IMG/VR virus record: IMGVR_UViG_2579778721_000001
Coordinates: 1-6,104 of that record
Source: a virus
Lineage: Duplodnaviria > Heunggongvirae > Uroviricota > Caudoviricetes
DNA: 6,104 nucleotides
Strand: one strand, 5' to 3'
The notes under the pieces were generated by a model. The model was not told where the DNA came from and made no database searches. It saw only the letters and a list, made by a program, of their open reading frames with translations. This document shows positions 1-6,104 of this stretch, in pieces. The first letter of the stretch is position 1. Each line of letters opens with the position of its first letter. Position numbers and translations under genes: made by a program.

Positions 1-351
1 TCACCAGAAAATTGATAACAGAGGGCGTTGCAGCGGGGTTGTCACTTAAGCGTATGGTCAACCTGACAACCCGGTGTCCTCAACGGGGGAAGGAATAACC
101 CCGCCATACTTACCGCCGCGCCATTTCGCGGATTGCCACAACCGGAAGCGCACGGTCGACGAAAATTTAACGACAGGCTATCTATGAACCAGCTACCTCG
201 CCGTGCGCTTTCGCGTTATGGTCTGACTTTTCAGGGAAATATCCTTTCAGTAAACTGTCAGTGCCGGATGCTCACCCGTGTCCGGCGCACGCACTCCACC
301 TCACCCGTGGAGAACTCCTTAATTACCAACCTTAGCTTCGTTGGTTATCTA

Positions 352-570
352 TTAACGCGGGTATGTAATCATTCTGGCAATGCTTAATGCCGCTGCTTTT
401 TCCAGCCTGGTGATATCCTGCTCCAGAGCGGACAGATTTTCAGCCTGCTTAGCTCTGGCTTCATTAGCCCATTTCAGATCCTGCGCTGCATTAATTTTCT
501 GGCGCATCCACTCATAAAGTTCATCATCGGTATAGTCTGGCGCGATGATGACGGGTTCTCGTTTCTGCAT
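352..570 (-). CDS. Hypothetical small protein (72 aa), distal gene of the leftward early operon; YdfC-like by size and position only
   Basis: ORF in supplied track. ATG at 570-568 with a GAGGA Shine-Dalgarno (complement of 577-581) about 6 nt upstream. Tandem in-frame stops TAA/TAG. Same strand and tight spacing with the two upstream small ORFs. Confidence 0.6.
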   Translation of the reverse strand: MQKREPVIIAPDYTDDELYEWMRQKINAAQDLKWANEARAKQAENLSALEQDITRLEKAAALSIARMITYPR

Positions 571-599
571 ACTGATTCCTCGCGGTGCTGTTTCGCTTA

Positions 600-710
600 T
601 CAGCCGTTAGATTTTCCCGAACTGGAAAGCGCCTGTTTAAATTCACTGAAGCTGAGAGCTTCTTCGCCTTCGGCAAGACCATCGAAGTATTCTTCGTAAG
701 CCTTTTCCAT
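600..710 (-). CDS. Small protein, 36 aa (MEKAYEEYFDGLAEGEEALSFSEFKQALSSSGKSNG); middle gene of leftward operon
   Basis: Manual translation of the minus strand; absent from the ORF track, presumably below its length cutoff. ATG at 710-708, stop TGA (complement of 600-602). Start lies 19 nt after the stop of the 730..885 ORF and its stop 29 nt before the next ATG. No clear SD, so it rests mainly on operon context and acidic, non-random composition. Confidence 0.4.
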   Translation of the reverse strand: MEKAYEEYFDGLAEGEEALSFSEFKQALSSSGKSNG

Positions 711-729
711 GATTGTGTCGAAATCCATA

Positions 730-885
730 TCACTCACCTGAGTTTCTTTCCAGCCAGCGACGGGCACCATTTTCGGTTTTAAACGTTTTGCTTTTGGTAT
801 ACGTCATCGCGGTGAATGTGCCGTCCTGGTTGGGAAACACGCCGTACACCAGAGATTCGTTGTTGCCAAGCTCGATAGTATCCAT
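730..885 (-). CDS. Small protein, 51 aa (MDTIELGNNESLVYGVFPNQDGTFTAMTYTKSKTFKTENGARRWLERNSGE); first gene after the pL-like promoter; possibly DUF1391 (YdfA/YdaF-type)
   Basis: Manual translation; absent from the ORF track. ATG at 885-883 preceded by GAGG (complement of 891-894) with a 5-nt spacer. Stop TGA (complement of 730-732). Size and position match the first small gene of Rac/Qin-type leftward operons; family assignment is from memory, not a search. Confidence 0.55.
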   Translation of the reverse strand: MDTIELGNNESLVYGVFPNQDGTFTAMTYTKSKTFKTENGARRWLERNSGE

Positions 886-954
886 GCTGACCTCATTTCC
901 CCTTAACGCCGGGTGGCGGAACTAAAACCTACAGCGCCGTGCTGTTCTTGATAG

Positions 955-977
955 AAATATTAGTAACGCGGATATTT
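955..977. promoter_or_regulatory. Putative operator (OL-type) palindrome AAATAT-N11-ATATTT overlapping the pL -10
   Basis: Inverted repeat AAATAT (955-960) / ATATTT (972-977). Contains the 9-mer AAATATTAG that recurs at 1044-1052 and, inverted, at 1671-1679 in the pR region. Confidence 0.4.
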
Positions 978-985
978 TAAGTCAA
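957..985 (-). promoter_or_regulatory. pL-like sigma70 promoter for the leftward operon
   Basis: On the minus strand: -35 TTGACT (complement of 980-985), 17-bp spacer, -10 TAATAT (complement of 957-962). About 65 nt upstream of the ATG at 885. The -10 sits inside the operator-like motif CTAATATTT. Confidence 0.45.
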
Positions 986-1042
986 CAGTATGGCGTATGA
1001 TATTTTTGATTTGGTAACTATGTAAATGTTTTTTCAAGGGAA

Positions 1043-1056
1043 AAATATTAGTTATA
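1043..1056. promoter_or_regulatory. Second copy of the operator-like 9-mer AAATATTAG (possible OL2 or secondary promoter)
   Basis: AAATATTAGT at 1044-1053 matches 955-964 at 10 of 10 positions (11 of 13 over the extended site). No convincing -35 at 17 bp, so more likely a binding site than a promoter. Confidence 0.3.
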
Positions 1057-1082
1057 CAGCTGATTTGCAGAAGTTATGGCAC

Positions 1083-1112
1083 AAAAAAACCGACTAAGAC
1101 GTCGGTTTTTTT
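1083..1112. terminator. Bidirectional Rho-independent terminator between the repressor gene and the leftward operon
   Basis: A-run (1083-1089), stem CCGAC (1090-1094), loop TAAGAC, stem GTCGG (1101-1105), T-run (1106-1112). The hairpin is followed by a U-run on either strand. Sits 27 nt past the repressor stop. Confidence 0.7.
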
Positions 1113-1138
1113 GTTGTGGATGGGGTAGTGAGCGGTGG

Positions 1139-1600
1139 CTACTGGTTACGTTTCTTTAGTGCCAGCATGTTCTCGAAGGCTTCCTCGTAGAGCTTGTTTA
1201 GTCCACGTAGCTGGTTAAGGAGTTTGGCTTTTTCTGACGCAGGTAGAATCTCGAAGAGGTTAAGTAACTCTGCCTGTTCTTCATTGACCAGCCTCCATCC
1301 TTTGCCTGAAAAGTTATCATCATAAGTATCTGATGATCTTACATAATTCATTAAGTCTTTAAGGTCTTCTCGAATGTCCTCTGGTTTTACCTTTAACAGA
1401 GCCGCAAATTTTAGCGCAGCGTCGGTATTTACCGGTATCTTGCCGTTCAGATACTGGCTAACGGTGCCTTGAGATTCGAATCCCAACAACTCAGCCGCCA
1501 GCTCTTGAGTCAGCTTCAGCTCTTTTTTTCTTGCATTCCATGCGGCTTTTAAATTCTTGCTCGCTTCTGGAGTTGCAATCACTTCGCGTGTTTTTTTCAT
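1139..1600 (-). CDS. Prophage repressor, HTH XRE/cI-type N-terminal domain, 153 aa, no S24 peptidase domain (DicA/RacR-type)
   Basis: ORF in track. The HTH segment QELAAELLGFESQGTVSQYLNGKIPVNTDAALKFAALLKV matches the lambda cI helix-turn-helix pattern ([39 protein letters not shown]). Divergent from a Cro-like gene. At 153 aa it is too short for a LexA-like C-terminal domain. No SD upstream of the ATG, consistent with a leaderless mRNA. Confidence 0.85.
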   Translation of the reverse strand: MKKTREVIATPEASKNLKAAWNARKKELKLTQELAAELLGFESQGTVSQYLNGKIPVNTDAALKFAALLKVKPEDIREDLKDLMNYVRSSDTYDDNFSGKGWRLVNEEQAELLNLFEILPASEKAKLLNQLRGLNKLYEEAFENMLALKKRNQ

Positions 1601-1606
1601 ACATAG

Positions 1607-1634
1607 AGTTTATTTGTTTTACCAATATTATCAA
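1607..1634 (-). promoter_or_regulatory. Candidate pRM-like promoter producing a leaderless repressor mRNA
   Basis: On the minus strand: -35 TTGATA (complement of 1629-1634), 16-bp spacer, -10 TAAACT (complement of 1607-1612), ending 6 nt before the ATG at 1600. Weak hexamers, as expected for an activated maintenance promoter. Speculative. Confidence 0.3.
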
Positions 1635-1648
1635 AGATAGTCTGGCTA

Positions 1649-1677
1649 TTGATCTTTAAAATTAGCGGGGCTAATAT
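1649..1677 (+). promoter_or_regulatory. pR-like sigma70 promoter for the rightward early operon
   Basis: -35 TTGATC (1649-1654), 17-bp spacer, -10 TAATAT (1672-1677). About 30 nt upstream of the cro-like ATG at 1708. Overlapped by the palindrome ATTAGC-GGG-GCTAAT (1661-1675). Confidence 0.5.
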
Positions 1678-1679
1678 TT
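1658..1679. promoter_or_regulatory. Putative OR operator palindrome (AAAATTAGCGGGGCTAATATTT)
   Basis: Inverted repeat ATTAGC / GCTAAT around a GGG centre. The right half CTAATATTT is the reverse complement of the AAATATTAG motif in the pL region and overlaps the pR -10. Confidence 0.45.
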
Positions 1680-1707
1680 GCTCGAGGCATAACGTAGAAG
1701 GTTGGCT

Positions 1708-1983
1708 ATGAACTTAAGAGACTATTTAAAAGAGAAACATATCACCCAGCTACAGTTTGGGAAGCTAACGGGTTTATCTCAGGTGCATGTAAGTCGAGTG
1801 CTGGGGGGCTATGAAAGATTCAGCCCTGAAAAAGCATTACGTGTTGCTGAAGTAACGAATTTCGAGGTTACACCTCATGAACTCCGGCCTGATATTTACC
1901 CGAATCCAACCGACGGCTTACCTGTTGGATTCAAGGCTAACACACCAAATGCATCGGAGTTGATTCATGAAAATCAGGCATGA
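1708..1983 (+). CDS. Cro-like early regulator, YdaS-type HTH protein (91 aa from ATG 1708; the track ORF begins at an upstream TTG at 1702)
   Basis: ORF in track. GAAGG SD (1696-1700) 7 nt before ATG 1708. Divergent from the repressor. HTH-like segment LTGLSQVHVSRVL and a C-terminal ELRPD motif typical of YdaS/Cro-type proteins (from memory). Confidence 0.75.
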   Translation: MNLRDYLKEKHITQLQFGKLTGLSQVHVSRVLGGYERFSPEKALRVAEVTNFEVTPHELRPDIYPNPTDGLPVGFKANTPNASELIHENQA

Positions 1984-2392
1984 GCACATCCGCATGGCGA
2001 TGAATGCCTGGGCGCATCCGGACGGTGAAAAAGTTCCGGCAGCTGAAATAACCCGGGCTTATTTTGAGCTTGGTATGACGTTCCCGGAATTATATGACGA
2101 CAGCCATCCGGAAGCCCTGGCTCGCAATACCCAGAAAATTTTCCGCTGGGTGGAGAAAGACACTCCTGATGCGGTTAAAAAAATTCAGGCGTTGTTACCA
2201 GCGATCGAAAAAGCAATGCCGCCTCTGCTGGTGGCCCGAATGCGCAGCCACAGTTCAGCTTATTTTCGGGAGCTGGTGGAGACGCGGGAACGACTGGTGA
2301 GAGACGCTGATGATTTTGTCGCAGTGGCGATCGCTGGTTTCAACCAGATGAATCGTGGTGGCCCTGCAGGAAATATTGTGGCTGTGCATTGA
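1967..2392 (+). CDS. YdaT-type protein (cII functional analogue), 141 aa
   Basis: ORF in track. ATG 1967 overlaps the upstream stop (1981-1983) by 17 nt, with GGAG SD at 1956-1959. N-terminus MKIRHEHI and overall size match my recollection of the YdaT family; not verified by search. Confidence 0.7.
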   Translation: MKIRHEHIRMAMNAWAHPDGEKVPAAEITRAYFELGMTFPELYDDSHPEALARNTQKIFRWVEKDTPDAVKKIQALLPAIEKAMPPLLVARMRSHSSAYFRELVETRERLVRDADDFVAVAIAGFNQMNRGGPAGNIVAVH

Positions 2393-2463
2393 CTCGCAAT
2401 ATTCATACCGGATCACTTCCGGCAATTTGTGAGTAAAAAGATTCGGTATCAGAAGAGGTGAGT

Positions 2464-3504
2464 ATGGCTAACGCCTGGCTCAGATTATGGCATGACATGC
2501 CAAATGACCCTAAGTGGCGAACAATTGCCAGGGTGTCAGGGCAGCCAATTGCAACAGTGATGGCAGTGTATATCCACCTTCTGGTGAGCGCGTCACGAAA
2601 TGTCACGACATGTCACGGCGTGTCACTACGTGGTCACATTGATGTCACGACGGAAGATTTAGCAAGTGCGCTTGATGTGACGGAAGAAGTAATTGATTCA
2701 ATTTTACAGGCAATGCAGGGGCGGGTACTTGATGGAGATTTAATCACCGGATGGGAAAAACGCCAGGTACTGAAAGAGGACAATGGCAACGTTTCACAAA
2801 CCGCGAAATCCCCGGCAGAGCGCAAGAGAGCGCAGCGCGAGAGGGAAAAATTACGAAAACAGAATGAGGGGTGTCACGACGAGTCACGCATATGTCACGA
2901 CATGTCACGACGAGTCACGACAGATAAAGATACAGATAAAGAATTAAACCCCACACATAACGCGCACGTGCGCGAGAGTGCTCCGACCAGTGAGTCGAGT
3001 GGTACGCCGTTGCAGGCAGCAGAACCTGCATCCCTGGATGGACTGAGCGAACCCATCGGGAAATTTCCGATGGTCGATGACTGGCATCCGTCGCCGGATT
3101 TTCGACGACGGGCTGCGTTGTGGGGGATGGCTTTGCCGGAGCCGGAATTTACACCTGCTGAACTTGCCGCTTTCCGGGACTACTGGGCAGCGGAGGGGAA
3201 AGTTTTCACGCAGGTTCAGTGGGAGCAGAAATTCGCCCGTCACGTAAATCACGTCAGGGCGCAGGTTAAGCCAGTCAGCAAGGGGGTAAACCATGCAGCA
3301 GCACCAGGTGGCACCGCATCACGGGCAGTTCAGGAAATTCGGGCAGCACGTGAGCAGTGGGAACGTGAAAACGGATTTATCAGCGACGGAAACGGTCTGG
3401 AAGCTGTGGGAACTCATGGGGGAGGTTTATTCGAACCGCTGGACCCAGAAGAACGGGGCCGCACCTTCGAAGCTCTGGATTGCACAGATTGGCGCGATGA
3501 CTGA
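2464..3504 (+). CDS. Replication initiator (lambda O analogue): N-terminal DNA-binding region plus DnaT-like C-terminal domain; contains the putative origin
   Basis: ORF in track (GTG 2458; ATG 2464 preferred, GAGG SD at 2455-2458). Residues around FPMVDDWHPSPDFRRRAALWGMALPEPEFTPAELAAFRDYWAAEGKVFTQVQWEQKFARH align closely with the E. coli DnaT C-terminal domain ([59 protein letters not shown], from memory). Iteron arrays lie inside the gene, as in lambda O. Confidence 0.8.
   Translation: MANAWLRLWHDMPNDPKWRTIARVSGQPIATVMAVYIHLLVSASRNVTTCHGVSLRGHIDVTTEDLASALDVTEEVIDSILQAMQGRVLDGDLITGWEKRQVLKEDNGNVSQTAKSPAERKRAQREREKLRKQNEGCHDESRICHDMSRRVTTDKDTDKELNPTHNAHVRESAPTSESSGTPLQAAEPASLDGLSEPIGKFPMVDDWHPSPDFRRRAALWGMALPEPEFTPAELAAFRDYWAAEGKVFTQVQWEQKFARHVNHVRAQVKPVSKGVNHAAAPGGTASRAVQEIRAAREQWERENGFISDGNGLEAVGTHGGGLFEPLDPEERGRTFEALDCTDWRDD
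2591..2651. repeat. Iteron array 1: six direct copies of GTCAC(G/N)(A/N)C at 10-11 bp phasing
   Basis: GTCAC starts at 2592, 2602, 2612, 2622, 2633 and 2644. Spacing is not a multiple of 3, so the repeat is at DNA level, not protein level. Confidence 0.7.
2871..2921. repeat. Iteron array 2: five direct copies of GTCACGAC-type repeat at 10-11 bp phasing
   Basis: GTCAC starts at 2873, 2883, 2894, 2904 and 2914. Same orientation as array 1. Immediately followed by an AT-rich tract. Confidence 0.75.
2922..2947. other. AT-rich tract with direct repeat CAGATAAAGA x2 next to iteron array 2 (candidate DNA-unwinding element of the origin)
   Basis: cagataaagatacagataaagaattaaa is far more AT-rich than the surrounding coding sequence and directly abuts the last iteron, mirroring lambda ori architecture (iterons followed by an AT-rich region). 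Confidence 0.5.
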
Positions 3505-3958
3505 GCAGCAAATCCGACAGGTCTGCCGCCAGTGCATGGACCGCTGCCGGGCGGGTGAAACATGGCCTCCGGACCTGGCTGAGTTTGTGGCGCTGATTTC
3601 AGAAAGCGGGGCCAATCCATTTGGCCTGACGGTGGATGCTGTGATGGAGGAGTACCGCCGCTGGCGTGATGAGTCCTGGCGATATGACGGAAGCGACAAA
3701 TATCCGTGGCCTCAGCCTGTGCTGTACCACATCTGCCTCGAAATGCGTACCAGAGGGATTGAGCGCCAGATGACGCAGGGTGAGTTAAAACGACTTGCGG
3801 AACGGCAACTGACGAAATGGGCAAAGCATGTTGGTAACGGGATGAGTGTTCCGCCAGTGCGACGACAACTGGAAGGGGCGAAACACCCGCAAGGGCCAAC
3901 GCCAATTGAACGGCTGAAACAGGAATACGAACGCCGGAAGGCAGCTGGTTTTATTTGA
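3293..3958 (+). CDS. Lambda P-like replication protein (helicase loader), 221 aa
   Basis: ORF in track. Strong SD AGGGGG (3281-3286) 6 nt before ATG 3293. Colinear similarity to lambda P from memory: WIAQIGAMTEQ vs WVLAFRENGITTMEQ, YPWPQPVLYHICLEM vs YPWKSNAHYWLVTNL, ELKRLAERQLTKWAKHVGNG vs EFRRKAADELVHMTARINRG. The alignment register supports the 3293 start over the downstream ATGs. Confidence 0.7.
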   Translation: MQQHQVAPHHGQFRKFGQHVSSGNVKTDLSATETVWKLWELMGEVYSNRWTQKNGAAPSKLWIAQIGAMTEQQIRQVCRQCMDRCRAGETWPPDLAEFVALISESGANPFGLTVDAVMEEYRRWRDESWRYDGSDKYPWPQPVLYHICLEMRTRGIERQMTQGELKRLAERQLTKWAKHVGNGMSVPPVRRQLEGAKHPQGPTPIERLKQEYERRKAAGFI

Positions 3959-3991
3959 ATCTGAGAAACGATTTTGTCGGAGGAAATTTTA

Positions 3992-4762
3992 ATGGAAACC
4001 GTATTTGACGCACTGAAAGCAATGGGAAAAGCCACATCGGTAGAACTGGCCGCGCGACTTGATATCAGTCGTGAAGAGGTTCTCAACGAGCTGTGGGAAC
4101 TCAAAAGAAATGGCGTCGTTGATAAAACTGGTCACACCTGGTTTCTGGCTGGCGAAGGTGAATCCCGGGTAACCGAAGAGCGGCCAGTAAAATCTGAAGC
4201 ACAGGATATGCTGACCGGGGAGGTCGAACAAAAAGTTACCGCAGACATGATGATTGAGTTTATCGGTCAGGATGGTGCTAAAACGTGTGAGGAACTGGCG
4301 GGTAAGTTCGGCGTCAGTACTCGCAAGGTTGCCTCCACGCTGGCGGTGGTAACCGCAACGGGGCGGCTGGCACGCGTTAATCAGAACGGTAAATTTCGTT
4401 ACTGCATGCCGGGCGATAATTTACCAGCAGAGCCGAAAGCCGCGCTGGTAACGGAAAGTGATGGTAAGGCCTTTCCTCAGCCAGCAGGTGCTGCGTTACC
4501 AGTCCGGGAAGCCGCAACACAGGAAGAAATTAAAACAGAAACTGTGGCGGACATTGTGCAGCCGTTGCCATCGTTTACCGAAACGCAAGCAGATGAGCTG
4601 ATTTTTCCGTCCCTTCGCAGGGCAAACCTGGCGCTGCGCAGGGCGAAAAGTGATGTTCAGAAGTGGGAGCGAGTCTGCGCCGCGCTGCGGGAGGTGAACA
4701 AGCACCGGGATATTGTTCGACAGATTACTGATTCTTCCCGCCGTGTTGTATCGGAAAAGTGA
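3992..4762 (+). CDS. Hypothetical protein with two tandem winged-helix-like modules (256 aa from ATG 3992; the track ORF begins at TTG 3974)
   Basis: ORF in track. GGAGG SD (3979-3983) 8 nt before ATG 3992. Two internal HTH-like repeats (residues about 7-50 and 90-135). Confidence 0.7.
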
Positions 4763-4777
4763 TTGCCGGAGGCGCTT

Positions 4778-5170
4778 ATGGCAAAAGTATTTACACCAGA
4801 AGAGCGGGAAGAAGTGAAGGCGCGCATTGTGGAATTCGTGCGCCTGAGCGGACGAGAAACTTTTCGACAACTGGCAGATAAAACGGGTGTCAGTAAGACC
4901 GCTATTCGTCGTTTATCTGGTGCGCTTGCGGCCAGTGGTGATGTCTGGCTCTCTGGTTGCGGGGTATTTCCATCAGAGCAGGCGTATCGCGTATGGCGTA
5001 AGACACCGGAGAAGGCTGCTGACCCGACACTGATTCGAAAGTTACCTGACGGAGAAATACGTCGTTACAACAGACGGCAGAACATAATTTGTCGTGAGTG
5101 CCGCCAGAGCGAAGTTATGCAGCGTGTGCTGGCGTTCTATCGGGGAAACTTTCAGGAGGTGATGGAGTGA
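4778..5170 (+). CDS. Hypothetical winged-helix protein with C-terminal CxxC motif (130 aa from ATG 4778; the track ORF begins at TTG 4763)
   Basis: ORF in track. GGAGG SD (4768-4772) 5 nt before ATG 4778. The wHTH module EFVRLSGRETFRQLADKTGVSKTAIRRLSGALAASG is paralogous to module 2 of the upstream protein ([36 protein letters not shown]). Confidence 0.7.
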   Translation: MAKVFTPEEREEVKARIVEFVRLSGRETFRQLADKTGVSKTAIRRLSGALAASGDVWLSGCGVFPSEQAYRVWRKTPEKAADPTLIRKLPDGEIRRYNRRQNIICRECRQSEVMQRVLAFYRGNFQEVME

Positions 5171-5463
5171 GGGTCAGAGTTTATATTGCCGGTCCAATGA
5201 CGGGATATGAAAATTTCAACCGTGAGGCGTTTCACAAGGCGGAAGAGGAACTGAAACGGGAAGGGCATACCGTCTTAAACCCGGCAGTACTTCCGGACGG
5301 GCTGACACAGCCGCACTACATGGATATTTGCATGGCAATGATTCGTTGTGTGGATGCGATTTACATGCTGAATGGCTGGCAGCGGTCAGCGGGCGCTAAG
5401 GCAGAGCTGGCACTGGCGGAGAAACTGGGGCATGCAGTGATTTATCAGGAGGTGGCTCAATGA
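5167..5463 (+). CDS. DUF4406-like protein (nucleoside 2-deoxyribosyltransferase-like fold), 98 aa from GTG 5167
   Basis: Track ORF 5098..5463. Preferred start is GTG 5167, overlapping the upstream stop as GTGA, with GGAGG SD (5155-5159) 7 nt upstream. The N-terminal V-Y-I-A-G-P-M-T-G motif is typical of DUF4406 proteins (from memory). Confidence 0.65.
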   Translation: MRVRVYIAGPMTGYENFNREAFHKAEEELKREGHTVLNPAVLPDGLTQPHYMDICMAMIRCVDAIYMLNGWQRSAGAKAELALAEKLGHAVIYQEVAQ

Positions 5464-5921
5464 GAGAGGTTAACTATGAGGCGCTTCGTGAGGCAGCACA
5501 AAACTATCAGTCGACGCTGGCGTGGTATCAGGCTATCCCGGACAGCCCAAATGCTGAACGGGATTGTGATGCGGCTCTTGCTGCGTTTAAGCGTCACATC
5601 CGTCATCGGGAAGCGGATATTATCGCTGATTTGCTGGATGGACTGGAAGAAGCAAAATCACAACTCAACGAGCAGCGTGAGTATTACGAAGGCGTTATCT
5701 CTGATGGGAGCAAGCGTATTGCTGAACTGGAAGCGCGGGAAGTTCAATTACCGACTCGCTACGACCTTCGATATGGACACCCGATAAATGCAGATGAGCG
5801 ACATGTCATGATACCTAAAGAAAATGGCAGTTGGCTTTACCTGATTGACTTAGAACACGCATTACGCGTCGCTGGCATTCGCATCAAAGGAGAGGAGCAT
5901 GGAAATAAAACCAGAGGATGA
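5460..5921 (+). CDS. Hypothetical protein, 153 aa; N-terminus weakly reminiscent of Ead/Ea22-like phage proteins
   Basis: ORF in track. ATG 5460 overlaps the upstream stop as ATGA. AGGAGG SD (5447-5452) 7 nt upstream. The ALREAA N-terminal motif resemblance is from memory and low confidence. Confidence 0.6.
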   Translation: MREVNYEALREAAQNYQSTLAWYQAIPDSPNAERDCDAALAAFKRHIRHREADIIADLLDGLEEAKSQLNEQREYYEGVISDGSKRIAELEAREVQLPTRYDLRYGHPINADERHVMIPKENGSWLYLIDLEHALRVAGIRIKGEEHGNKTRG

Positions 5922-6104
5922 GTTAAGCAATATCGTTTTATTTCCGGTAAAAGAGGATGACCCTCGTAATCAGGTTAATTTTCTTTATGAGCCATCGGAA
6001 AGACCATATTGTCATCACGCCTCTGTTCGGGTTGACGAAAAAGAGCGTCAGGTCCGCTGTAAAATCTGCGGTGCAGTTGTGGAGCCGTTTGACTGGATGC
6101 TCTC
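5899..6104 (+). CDS. Hypothetical protein with Cys/His zinc-ribbon-like motif, 5' partial (runs off the window end)
   Basis: Manual translation from ATG 5899: MEIKPEDELSNIVLFPVKEDDPRNQVNFLYEPSERPYCHHASVRVDEKERQVRCKICGAVVEPFDWML..., open to the window end. SD AAGGAGAGGAG (5888-5898). Overlaps the upstream gene by 23 nt. Not in the track because no stop lies within the window. Confidence 0.5.
   Translation, partial: MEIKPEDELSNIVLFPVKEDDPRNQVNFLYEPSERPYCHHASVRVDEKERQVRCKICGAVVEPFDWML

Follow-up and report, generated by a model that had tools for sequence, protein, structure and literature searches.

An out-of-frame overlap of 212 nt between a replication initiator gene and a lambda-P-type helicase loader gene in a Rac-like prophage: a probable dual-coding pair

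Can one stretch of phage DNA encode both the end of a replication initiator and the beginning of its helicase loader? The question is raised by IMG/VR record IMGVR_UViG_2579778721_000001 (Caudoviricetes), of which positions 1 to 6,104 were analysed and are called the window here. It comes from a Rac-like lambdoid prophage of Escherichia coli and corresponds to the immunity and replication region, where a replication initiator gene is followed by a gene for a helicase loader of the lambda P type. A first-pass annotation, made by a model from the letters alone, stated that the initiator frame stays open to the TGA at 3502-3504, that the P-like gene has a Shine-Dalgarno (SD) sequence and an ATG at 3293, and that both frames are open for 70 codons. 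All of this is borne out by the open reading frame listing and the sequence. What it left undecided was whether the overlap is genuine dual coding or whether the initiator tail is a read-through extension. We hold it to be quite probable that the two genes form a genuine and conserved dual-coding pair; the evidence favours dual coding over a read-through tail without function, with qualifications on the distal part of the tail. The features on which the argument turns are the following.

2458..3504, plus strand: replication initiator open reading frame, 348 aa from GTG 2458, stop TGA 3502-3504
3064..3264, plus strand: DnaT DNA-binding domain, initiator residues 203-269, ending 5' of the overlap
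3280..3287, plus strand: SD sequence AAGGGGGT, 6 nt before the loader ATG 3293
3293..3958, plus strand: lambda-P-type helicase loader, long form of 221 aa, proposed as the true gene
3293..3504, plus strand: out-of-frame overlap, 212 nt, 70 codons, loader frame +1 relative to the initiator
3296..3397, plus strand: segment a, initiator frame dominant; loader residues 2-35, variable in sequence and length and predicted to be disordered
3316-3369, plus strand: tail helix ASRAVQEIRAAREQWERE, initiator residues 287-304 in the AlphaFold2 (AF2) model
3398..3496, plus strand: segment b, loader frame dominant; loader residues W36-A68; its initiator product GLEAVGTHGGGLFEPLDPEERGRTFEALDCTDWR is predicted to be disordered and has an acidic motif at 3418-3456
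3416..3418, plus strand: ATG of loader residue M42, the start of 180-181-aa forms in other genera according to the Prokaryotic Genome Annotation Pipeline (PGAP)
3497..3504, plus strand: ATGACTGA, with the ATG annotated as loader start (153 aa) and an 8-nt overlap with the initiator stop

Conservation of the two open frames

Related loci were collected in a species-level scan with one genome per species, which gave 37 loci from many Enterobacterales genera. Intact related loci numbered 34, of which 29 were non-redundant; loci are cited below by L numbers and database proteins by P numbers. The overlap is kept in all 34, with a length of 149-227 nt, and the genera are Escherichia, Salmonella, Citrobacter, Enterobacter, Klebsiella, Pluralibacter, Phytobacter, Kluyvera, Pectobacterium, Serratia, Rahnella, Rouxiella, Yersinia, Erwinia, Buttiauxella, Samsonia and Limnobaculum. 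In every intact locus an ATG 149-227 nt upstream of the initiator stop is followed by an uninterrupted P frame, and the initiator ends inside the conserved N-terminal region of the loader, its stop lying 25-97 nt upstream of the loader motif WPPDL (position -61 in the window, counted from this motif as are all negative positions below). The comparison with related prophages that the first-pass annotation had proposed therefore finds no initiator ending near 3300. Insertions and deletions within the aligned overlap region are multiples of three only.

Inside the overlap of the 29 non-redundant loci neither frame has a stop in about 1950 codons per frame, where the off-frame stop density would predict about 81 and 99. 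Outside the overlap the off-frame stop density of the same genes is 4.2-5.1 per 100 codons, from which the chance of an open frame is 0.03-0.06 per locus. For the window alone the overlap is not clearly improbable: when synonymous codons were shuffled, the P frame was open with a chance of about 0.2 given the initiator protein, and the initiator frame with a chance of about 0.1 given the P protein. It is the persistence of both open frames in all 34 intact loci that makes the case for an overlap that is not due to chance.

When complete E. coli genomes were searched with the stretch 3100-3960, within which the overlap lies entirely, 1257 records matched; identity was at least 99% in 315 of these and 100% in several, e.g. 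strain 118UI. The stretch was found in 1253 of 5426 complete E. coli genomes. Because the same sequence occurs in independent complete genomes, a sequencing frameshift, which the first-pass annotation had named as a possible refutation, does not account for the overlap. Judged by these sequence comparisons, the overlap is neither chance nor sequencing error.

A natural control is provided by an Erwinia locus (L042) that has lost its initiator by deletion: the loader frame is still intact there, but stops have arisen in the former initiator frame.

As an additional observation, the initiator has been lost and the loader open reading frame left intact in two Erwinia strains, MMLR14_017 (L042) and CGal63 (L034), around positions 2960-3620. 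The loader gene adjoins a PTS-like gene in the first and ttcA in the second, where the former initiator frame is still open over its last 45 codons or so. In E. coli, ttcA is the attachment region of Rac.

Selection along the overlap

Constraint was assessed by codon-position variability and by an OLGenie-like sorting of changes according to whether they alter the protein of both frames, of one frame only or of neither. Null values were obtained from non-overlapped control regions with a fake second frame, and were 1.35-1.48 for the initiator frame (omega_I) and 0.77-0.90 for the loader frame (omega_P).

Segment a behaves mainly as initiator sequence. Variability by initiator codon position follows I3 > I1 > I2, and omega_I is 0.49 (confidence interval, CI, 0.29-0.76). 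At a divergence of 15% or less, 9 changes are non-synonymous in both frames (NN) as against 40 and 45 in the two single-frame classes (NS and SN, respectively), i.e. double-hit changes are far rarer than changes to a single protein. The loader frame of this segment gives an omega_P of 0.52-0.69 (0.52 with a CI of 0.29-0.94 where the null is 0.77), lower than its null but not significantly so. The proximal tail at 3316-3369 is under initiator-frame selection.

Segment b behaves mainly as loader sequence. Here variability by loader codon position follows P3 > P1 > P2, and omega_P is 0.10 (CI 0.04-0.18), like the value of 0.11 for the non-overlapped rest of the gene. The initiator frame gives an omega_I of 0.94-1.07 (0.94 where the null is 1.48), again lower than its null without reaching significance. 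The codon-position-specific conservation that the first-pass annotation had asked about in each frame is thus seen for the initiator in segment a and for the loader in segment b, and falls short of significance for the minor frame of either segment. Segment-level OLGenie-like tests were rejected as proof of dual constraint, as the control nulls are not 1 and the minor-frame signals are not significant. For this reason the argument rests on synonymous codon bias at single sites and on the conservation of the open frames.

At the level of single sites, three loader residues of segment b have strongly biased synonymous codons: G43 is GGG in 12 of 14 sequences, S47 is TCG in 14 of 16 and K53 is AAG in 26 of 29 (p<1e-6 for each), whereas in the background other codons are preferred. 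The biases keep Gly, Glu and Glu in the initiator, respectively, which goes beyond mere stop avoidance. Extreme bias is found in 5 of 25 columns of segment b and in 1 of 120 loader columns outside the overlap (Fisher p=6e-4), and loader-synonymous divergence among close relatives is 0.113 in segment b versus 0.369 downstream, a 3-fold reduction. Loader-synonymous choices thus appear to preserve the acidic initiator motif GG.L.EPLD.EE, where '.' means any amino acid, with only some of its residues selected. For the distal tail the constraint is only site-specific, and the last 12-25 or so residues of the initiator, which vary in length and sequence, may be dispensable.

The alternative that survives best, although we regard it as unlikely, is that the overlap is translated in both frames and that the initiator tail beyond about 3400 is a functionless read-through extension, tolerated as it is disordered. 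This would agree with an omega_I of about 1 for segment b as a whole, with a predicted local distance difference test (pLDDT) score below 50 for initiator residues 308-348 in the AF2 model, and with an initiator stop that varies from -25 to -97 so that the final residues differ between loci. However, selection on the loader only would be expected to give the null omega_I of 1.35-1.48 and not 1, and the three loader-synonymous sites favour initiator Glu and Gly codons (at K53, for instance, AAA would give Lys). Nor does the initiator stop before -97 in any locus, while stops do appear in the initiator-less L042, and the 3-fold lower loader-synonymous divergence is left unexplained. Of the two possibilities left by the first-pass annotation, dual coding is therefore favoured, with the proximal tail under selection; for the distal tail this holds at particular sites only.

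Initiators that are paired with a P protein end in short acidic or aromatic motifs, namely LDCTDWRDD in the window (3475-3501), LDLTNTDWIYGVDL in lambda O (L045) and PEAWEEFL in the Klebsiella protein P0183 (L046, 3700-3792). The coding contexts differ, and the likeness could be convergence or chance. The Trp of LDCTDWRDD depends on an unbiased loader wobble base and is not clearly selected.

The start of the loader

Three start models for the loader stand side by side in the databases. PGAP and three GenBank phage records begin it at ATG 3497, where the sequence MTEQ starts within ATGACTGA (153 aa). NCBI relatives from Salmonella, Citrobacter and Klebsiella begin at the equivalent of ATG 3416 (180-181 aa, named 'replication protein P'), and forms of 221-223 aa ('replication protein') are present in other NCBI records. 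Every annotated record of this stretch that we inspected gives the loader without its first 68 residues. The window loader is the same gene as RefSeq WP_000139457.1 (replication protein P, 153 aa), annotated on a 100% identical E. coli chromosome, and differs from it by the 68 residues that begin the proposed long form, MQQHQVAPHHGQFR...; the window initiator corresponds to WP_001262415.1 (DnaT-like ssDNA-binding domain-containing protein) on a chromosome of the same identity.

The upstream SD and ATG are the sole start candidate present in 34 of 34 loci. A GGAGG-like motif lies 6-10 nt before the upstream ATG in nearly all of them, and is weak in L024, L026 and L027. The SD is encoded through a conserved Gly-Gly of the initiator, in a disordered linker, and the initiator-synonymous codons are biased at this point: the pair is written GGA in 16 of 18 sequences (p=2.5e-8) and then GGT in 14 of 21 (p=5e-5), followed by His as CAT (14 of 14) or Asn as AAT (11 of 13). 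The SD and ATG are held in place by these biased synonymous initiator codons. RNA around the loader start is less structured than shuffles (z=+1.2); a stable fold was not found there and coupling based on RNA structure was dropped. A sigma-70-like site for an internal loader promoter was looked for in 2300-4100 and none was found. Non-ATG starts within 3293-3398 were discarded, since the alignment shows no conservation of the GTGs at 3308, 3350 and 3365 and no conserved TTG.

The residues upstream of 3497 are also conserved. Loader residues 35-68 read AWxLWExMGEIYSNRWxxKNGxxPSxLWIAQIG in sequences down to 44-50% overall identity, with W50, K53, N54, G55, P58 and W62 each present in at least 90% of loader sequences. 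In the AF2 model (mean pLDDT 76) helices are predicted at residues 26-46, 48-54 and 60-67 with a pLDDT of about 85, and residues 1-27 have a pLDDT below 50 and are predicted to be disordered. A P-like protein starting at 3497 with no conserved residues before it, as the first-pass annotation had envisaged among its refutations, is thus not what the relatives encode.

Sequence profiles and structure comparison place the product among the lambda P proteins. The loader gives 59.3 bits (cut-off 26) with the Pfam family Phage_lambda_P (PF06992), where residues 55-188 correspond to profile positions 27-161, so that the match begins 14 residues upstream of M69. A profile of the loader family matches the lambda P chains 8v9t and 8v9s. 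The top Foldseek matches are chains Z, V and Y of 9oa1 (probability 1.00, E 5e-6 to 2e-5, 207-222 columns), the best being 9oa1_Z, full-length lambda P bound to DnaB (222 columns, E=4.9e-6). The template modelling (TM) score against 9oa1 is low, at about 0.45, which is to be expected of a flexible protein with several domains, and the identity to lambda P is only 25% over 113 residues. Residue 86 of the loader aligns with residue 94 of lambda P, a register offset of 8; the earlier statement that the lambda P register needs residues upstream of MTEQ therefore holds. The loader gene lies directly downstream of the initiator gene with its probable origin. By homology and modelling, the product is a lambda-P-type helicase loader, and binding and loading of host DnaB are predicted for it.

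We take it as probable, with much the same confidence as for the dual-coding pair itself, that the loader starts at ATG 3293, because the SD and ATG are universal and because the residues upstream of 3497 are conserved and homologous to the non-overlapped N-termini of other P proteins. The 153-aa annotation is most likely an N-terminal truncation. The 153-aa form is at most a minor reinitiation isoform, for which ATGACTGA could serve as a termination-reinitiation site.

A start at ATG 3416 (M42, giving 180 aa and a true overlap of 89 nt) is improbable in our view. The ATG is present at -147 in 32 of 34 loci, the database forms of 180-181 aa begin there as does a PGAP pseudogene call in L006, and loader residues 1-33 are unconstrained and disordered. 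M42, however, lies inside the predicted helix 26-46, which such a start would cut, and downstream of the conserved A35, W36, L38 and W39; it is Leu in L024 and L027, and the SD before 3416 is weak. This start would also leave unexplained why an SD and ATG about 105-150 nt further upstream are kept everywhere by biased initiator codons, and why the frame between that ATG and M42 is free of stops.

In L006 (E. coli O111:H8 strain 8234, 2107-3400) the loader gene is split by an IS1203 insertion. The PGAP pseudogene call for the 5' fragment begins 81 nt upstream of the ATG equivalent to 3497, i.e. at the M42 position, which indicates that PGAP reference proteins reach upstream of the start annotated in intact E. 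coli copies.

Still less probable, and in our estimate very much so, is a start at 3497 coupled to the initiator stop via ATGACTGA, with the upstream P frame untranslated and its conservation due to the initiator tail. It has the PGAP and GenBank annotation and a lambda-like overlap of start and stop in its favour, as well as the chance of about 0.2 for an open P frame in the window alone. Against it, 10 of the 34 loci (L025, L030-L032, L035, L036, L038-L040 and L043) lack the ATG at -66, which is 3497 in the window, and in the window sequence no SD precedes 3497. Segment b is constrained in the P frame, with variability highest at P position 3, and the initiator pattern there is a shadow of it; the upstream residues moreover align to the non-overlapped N-termini of other P proteins and are predicted as confident helices. 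Lambda-style ATGA-type coupling over 1-8 nt was rejected as the sole link between the two genes for the missing ATG and for the variable position of the initiator stop (-25 to -97).

That the overlap is a frameshift artefact, or a programmed frameshift producing an initiator-loader fusion, can be practically dismissed: a few database entries (P0119, P0180) do join a DnaT to a P domain or change frame, and Leclercia L041 has a frame switch, but such fusions occur singly, on assemblies that are short or error-prone. Independent complete genomes carry the identical sequence, the two-frame layout is conserved across genera with in-frame indels only, and the P frame is +1 and not -1, so that the common -1 slippage would not join the frames.

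Frame switches or fusions between the initiator and loader frames inside the overlap were seen in L041 (Leclercia NCTC13032, about 2940-3190), L044 (Symbiopectobacterium), P0119 and P0180. These chimeras are probably assembly errors or pseudogenes, and they indicate that gene callers yield chimeric products here.

A number of points weigh against dual coding with a loader start at 3293. PGAP and the three GenBank phage records put the start at 3497, translation from 3293 is predicted from sequence, and the first 33 or so residues of the loader are poorly conserved, contain indels and are predicted to be disordered. Neither the loader constraint in segment a nor the segment-level initiator constraint in segment b differs significantly from the control null. 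In segment b the initiator sequence FEPLDPEERG is largely a shadow of the loader sequence YSNRWTQKNG, and the initiator pattern xTG-Gxx is forced by the TGG codons of the loader. There is a strong SD-like run, GGGGGAGG, at 3418-3426, which lies in both frames at loader codons G43-E44, and the GGG bias at G43 could serve this run, as a ribosome pause or an aid to internal initiation, and not the initiator glycine. The comparison of rates between segments assumes one shared history across a mosaic region. A docking function of the tail, taken up below, is purely something that we infer.

The tail and loader as a module

Highly mosaic initiators, of at least 7 N-terminal types, are found upstream of this loader subfamily. 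Among their middle domains are DnaT and, each without DnaT, Phage_rep_O, HTH_36 and DUF1376; some have no Pfam match. All these initiators carry a common tail, GG..H[AV] ... (G)ES.A..Q.R.ARE.W ... GG.L.EPLD.EE, which starts at about the loader SD. The tail is not specific to DnaT-domain initiators, and it is absent from a DnaT-domain initiator whose partner is a more distant P. As searching proteins with the initiator C-terminus yielded mainly partial E. coli entries, the ends of distant initiators were read from genome loci. Homology of the tail to lambda O or to E. coli DnaT was considered and rejected: no significant match to lambda O was found, and the DnaT homolog P0182, which ends about 35 residues after the domain, is tailless. 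Since the same tail occurs on unrelated initiators, the tail, SD, ATG and loader behave as one inherited unit, a recombination module fused in frame behind several unrelated initiator types.

The Klebsiella prophage L046 has a DnaT-domain initiator (P0183, 263 aa) and a 260-aa P, i.e. the same Pfam families in the same order. This P aligns to residues 22-221 of the window P (E=2e-20). Its N-terminus is not overlapped; the pair has an ordinary overlap of 4 nt, and P0183 ends about 35 residues after the DnaT domain, without the AVQ.IR..RE...EPLD.EE tail. As L046 combines a 4-nt overlap with a tailless initiator, the comparison suggests that the long overlap is derived and belongs to one P subfamily. 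The O-P module of lambda is likewise an iteron-bearing initiator gene followed by a PF06992 loader on the same strand. There the overlap is 4 nt (39582-39585), in contrast to 212 nt in the window, and lambda O has no significant similarity to the window initiator.

We propose that both proteins are made from one mRNA, the initiator being read to the TGA at 3502-3504 and translation of the loader beginning separately, in the +1 frame, at ATG 3293 behind an SD of its own. The 5' half of the overlap (3296-3397) would combine a constrained initiator helix with an unconstrained, disordered leader of the loader. The 3' half (3398-3496) would combine the conserved N-terminal helices of the loader, equivalent to the lambda P N-terminal region, with a disordered acidic end of the initiator. 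Ribosomes translating the initiator would pass through the loader initiation site, which would tie loader synthesis to initiator translation. After the stop at 3502-3504, reinitiation at 3497 may give a short isoform in lineages with that ATG.

In the AF2 model the tail itself is made up of a flexible linker, then a helix and an acidic end that is disordered, and it is a plausible docking element for the N-terminal region of the loader or for DnaB. In lambda P a functional N-terminal region lies upstream of the part that is kept in the 153-aa annotation, and it contributes to the loader ensemble on DnaB; the disordered N-terminal domains have been proposed to engage lambda O (PMC12661323). Docking of the tail would parallel this proposed contact and, more doubtfully, the overlap would keep two partner segments genetically inseparable during initiator exchange. 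A bolder version, which we offer tentatively and think rather doubtful, is that the second frame of the loader gene is a portable C-terminal adaptor: an initiator of any kind that recombines in frame ahead of the loader SD would gain the helix and acidic tail (AVQ.IR.ARE.W ... GG.L.EPLD.EE), which would dock it to the loader or DnaB. If so, initiator-loader specificity would be encoded by the loader module and be inseparable by recombination, and overprinting would be a solution to partner matching in mosaic phage genomes.

Classical overprinted phage genes are A/B/K and D/E of phiX174 and Rz/Rz1 of lambda. As in these, two proteins are encoded by one DNA stretch in different frames of the same strand, and where one frame is constrained the other is typically disordered or under weak constraint. 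Unlike these, the window genes are not nested: two long genes interdigitate tail to head, dominance passes from one frame to the other midway through the shared stretch, and this stretch lies at a mosaic recombination joint.

The PF06992 loader and DnaT-domain initiator families, overlapping phage genes, and the 221-aa form in some records are already known. In a literature search, whose coverage was incomplete and which is no proof of absence, we found no description of a conserved initiator/loader overlap of 149-227 nt, of its initiator-dominant and loader-dominant halves, or of its position at a mosaic joint. For annotation the consequence is practical: cloning or modelling from the reference annotation would use a truncated loader, and the 68 omitted residues correspond to the lambda P N-terminal region that has been proposed to contact the initiator (PMC12661323). 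Long same-strand overlaps are usually dismissed as annotation errors, and the one described here is conserved across at least 17 genera. It sits exactly where different initiators are swapped onto one loader, and is a tractable case for asking whether overprinting hard-wires the co-inheritance of interacting protein segments.

The gene order around the overlap is as follows.

1139-1600, minus strand: dicA-like repressor
between the dicA-like repressor and the initiator: ydaS-like and ydaT-like genes
2458 or 2464 to 3504, plus strand: initiator with DnaT domain
ending at 3958, plus strand: PF06992 lambda-P-type loader
after the loader: DUF1627 and DUF977 genes

The initiator consists of an N-terminal part like a replisome organizer, the DnaT domain and the C-terminal tail, with probable iterons within the gene. 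The DnaT domain (PF17948) scores 64.1 bits in Pfam (cut-off 25) and is folded in the AF2 model, with a pLDDT of about 90. PGAP takes ATG 2464 as the initiator start; the open reading frame opens at GTG 2458. Inside the gene, clusters of repeats of the type (A/G)TGTCACGAC, spaced by about 10 nt, occur at 2591-2651 and 2872-2921. Repeats of this type have 28 matches where 15.5 are expected, a number that none of 200 shuffles reached. By their sequence, the clusters are probably iterons of a candidate phage origin, in two arrays about 220 nt apart.

The loader region was found at 2468 places in the 1253 E. coli genomes, with 4-6 copies in some O157:H7 genomes, which indicates that co-resident prophages share the tail-plus-loader module behind different initiators. 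One further record, PP818812.1 ('Actinobacillus phage vB_Apl-pPE4', L003), has 90% DNA identity to this E. coli prophage replication module and carries ydaT-like and Ead/Ea22-like genes, and its host assignment to Actinobacillus pleuropneumoniae looks doubtful. Downstream of the loader, the start of the DUF1627 gene is ambiguous, as the open reading frame opens at TTG 3974 and PGAP uses ATG 3992.

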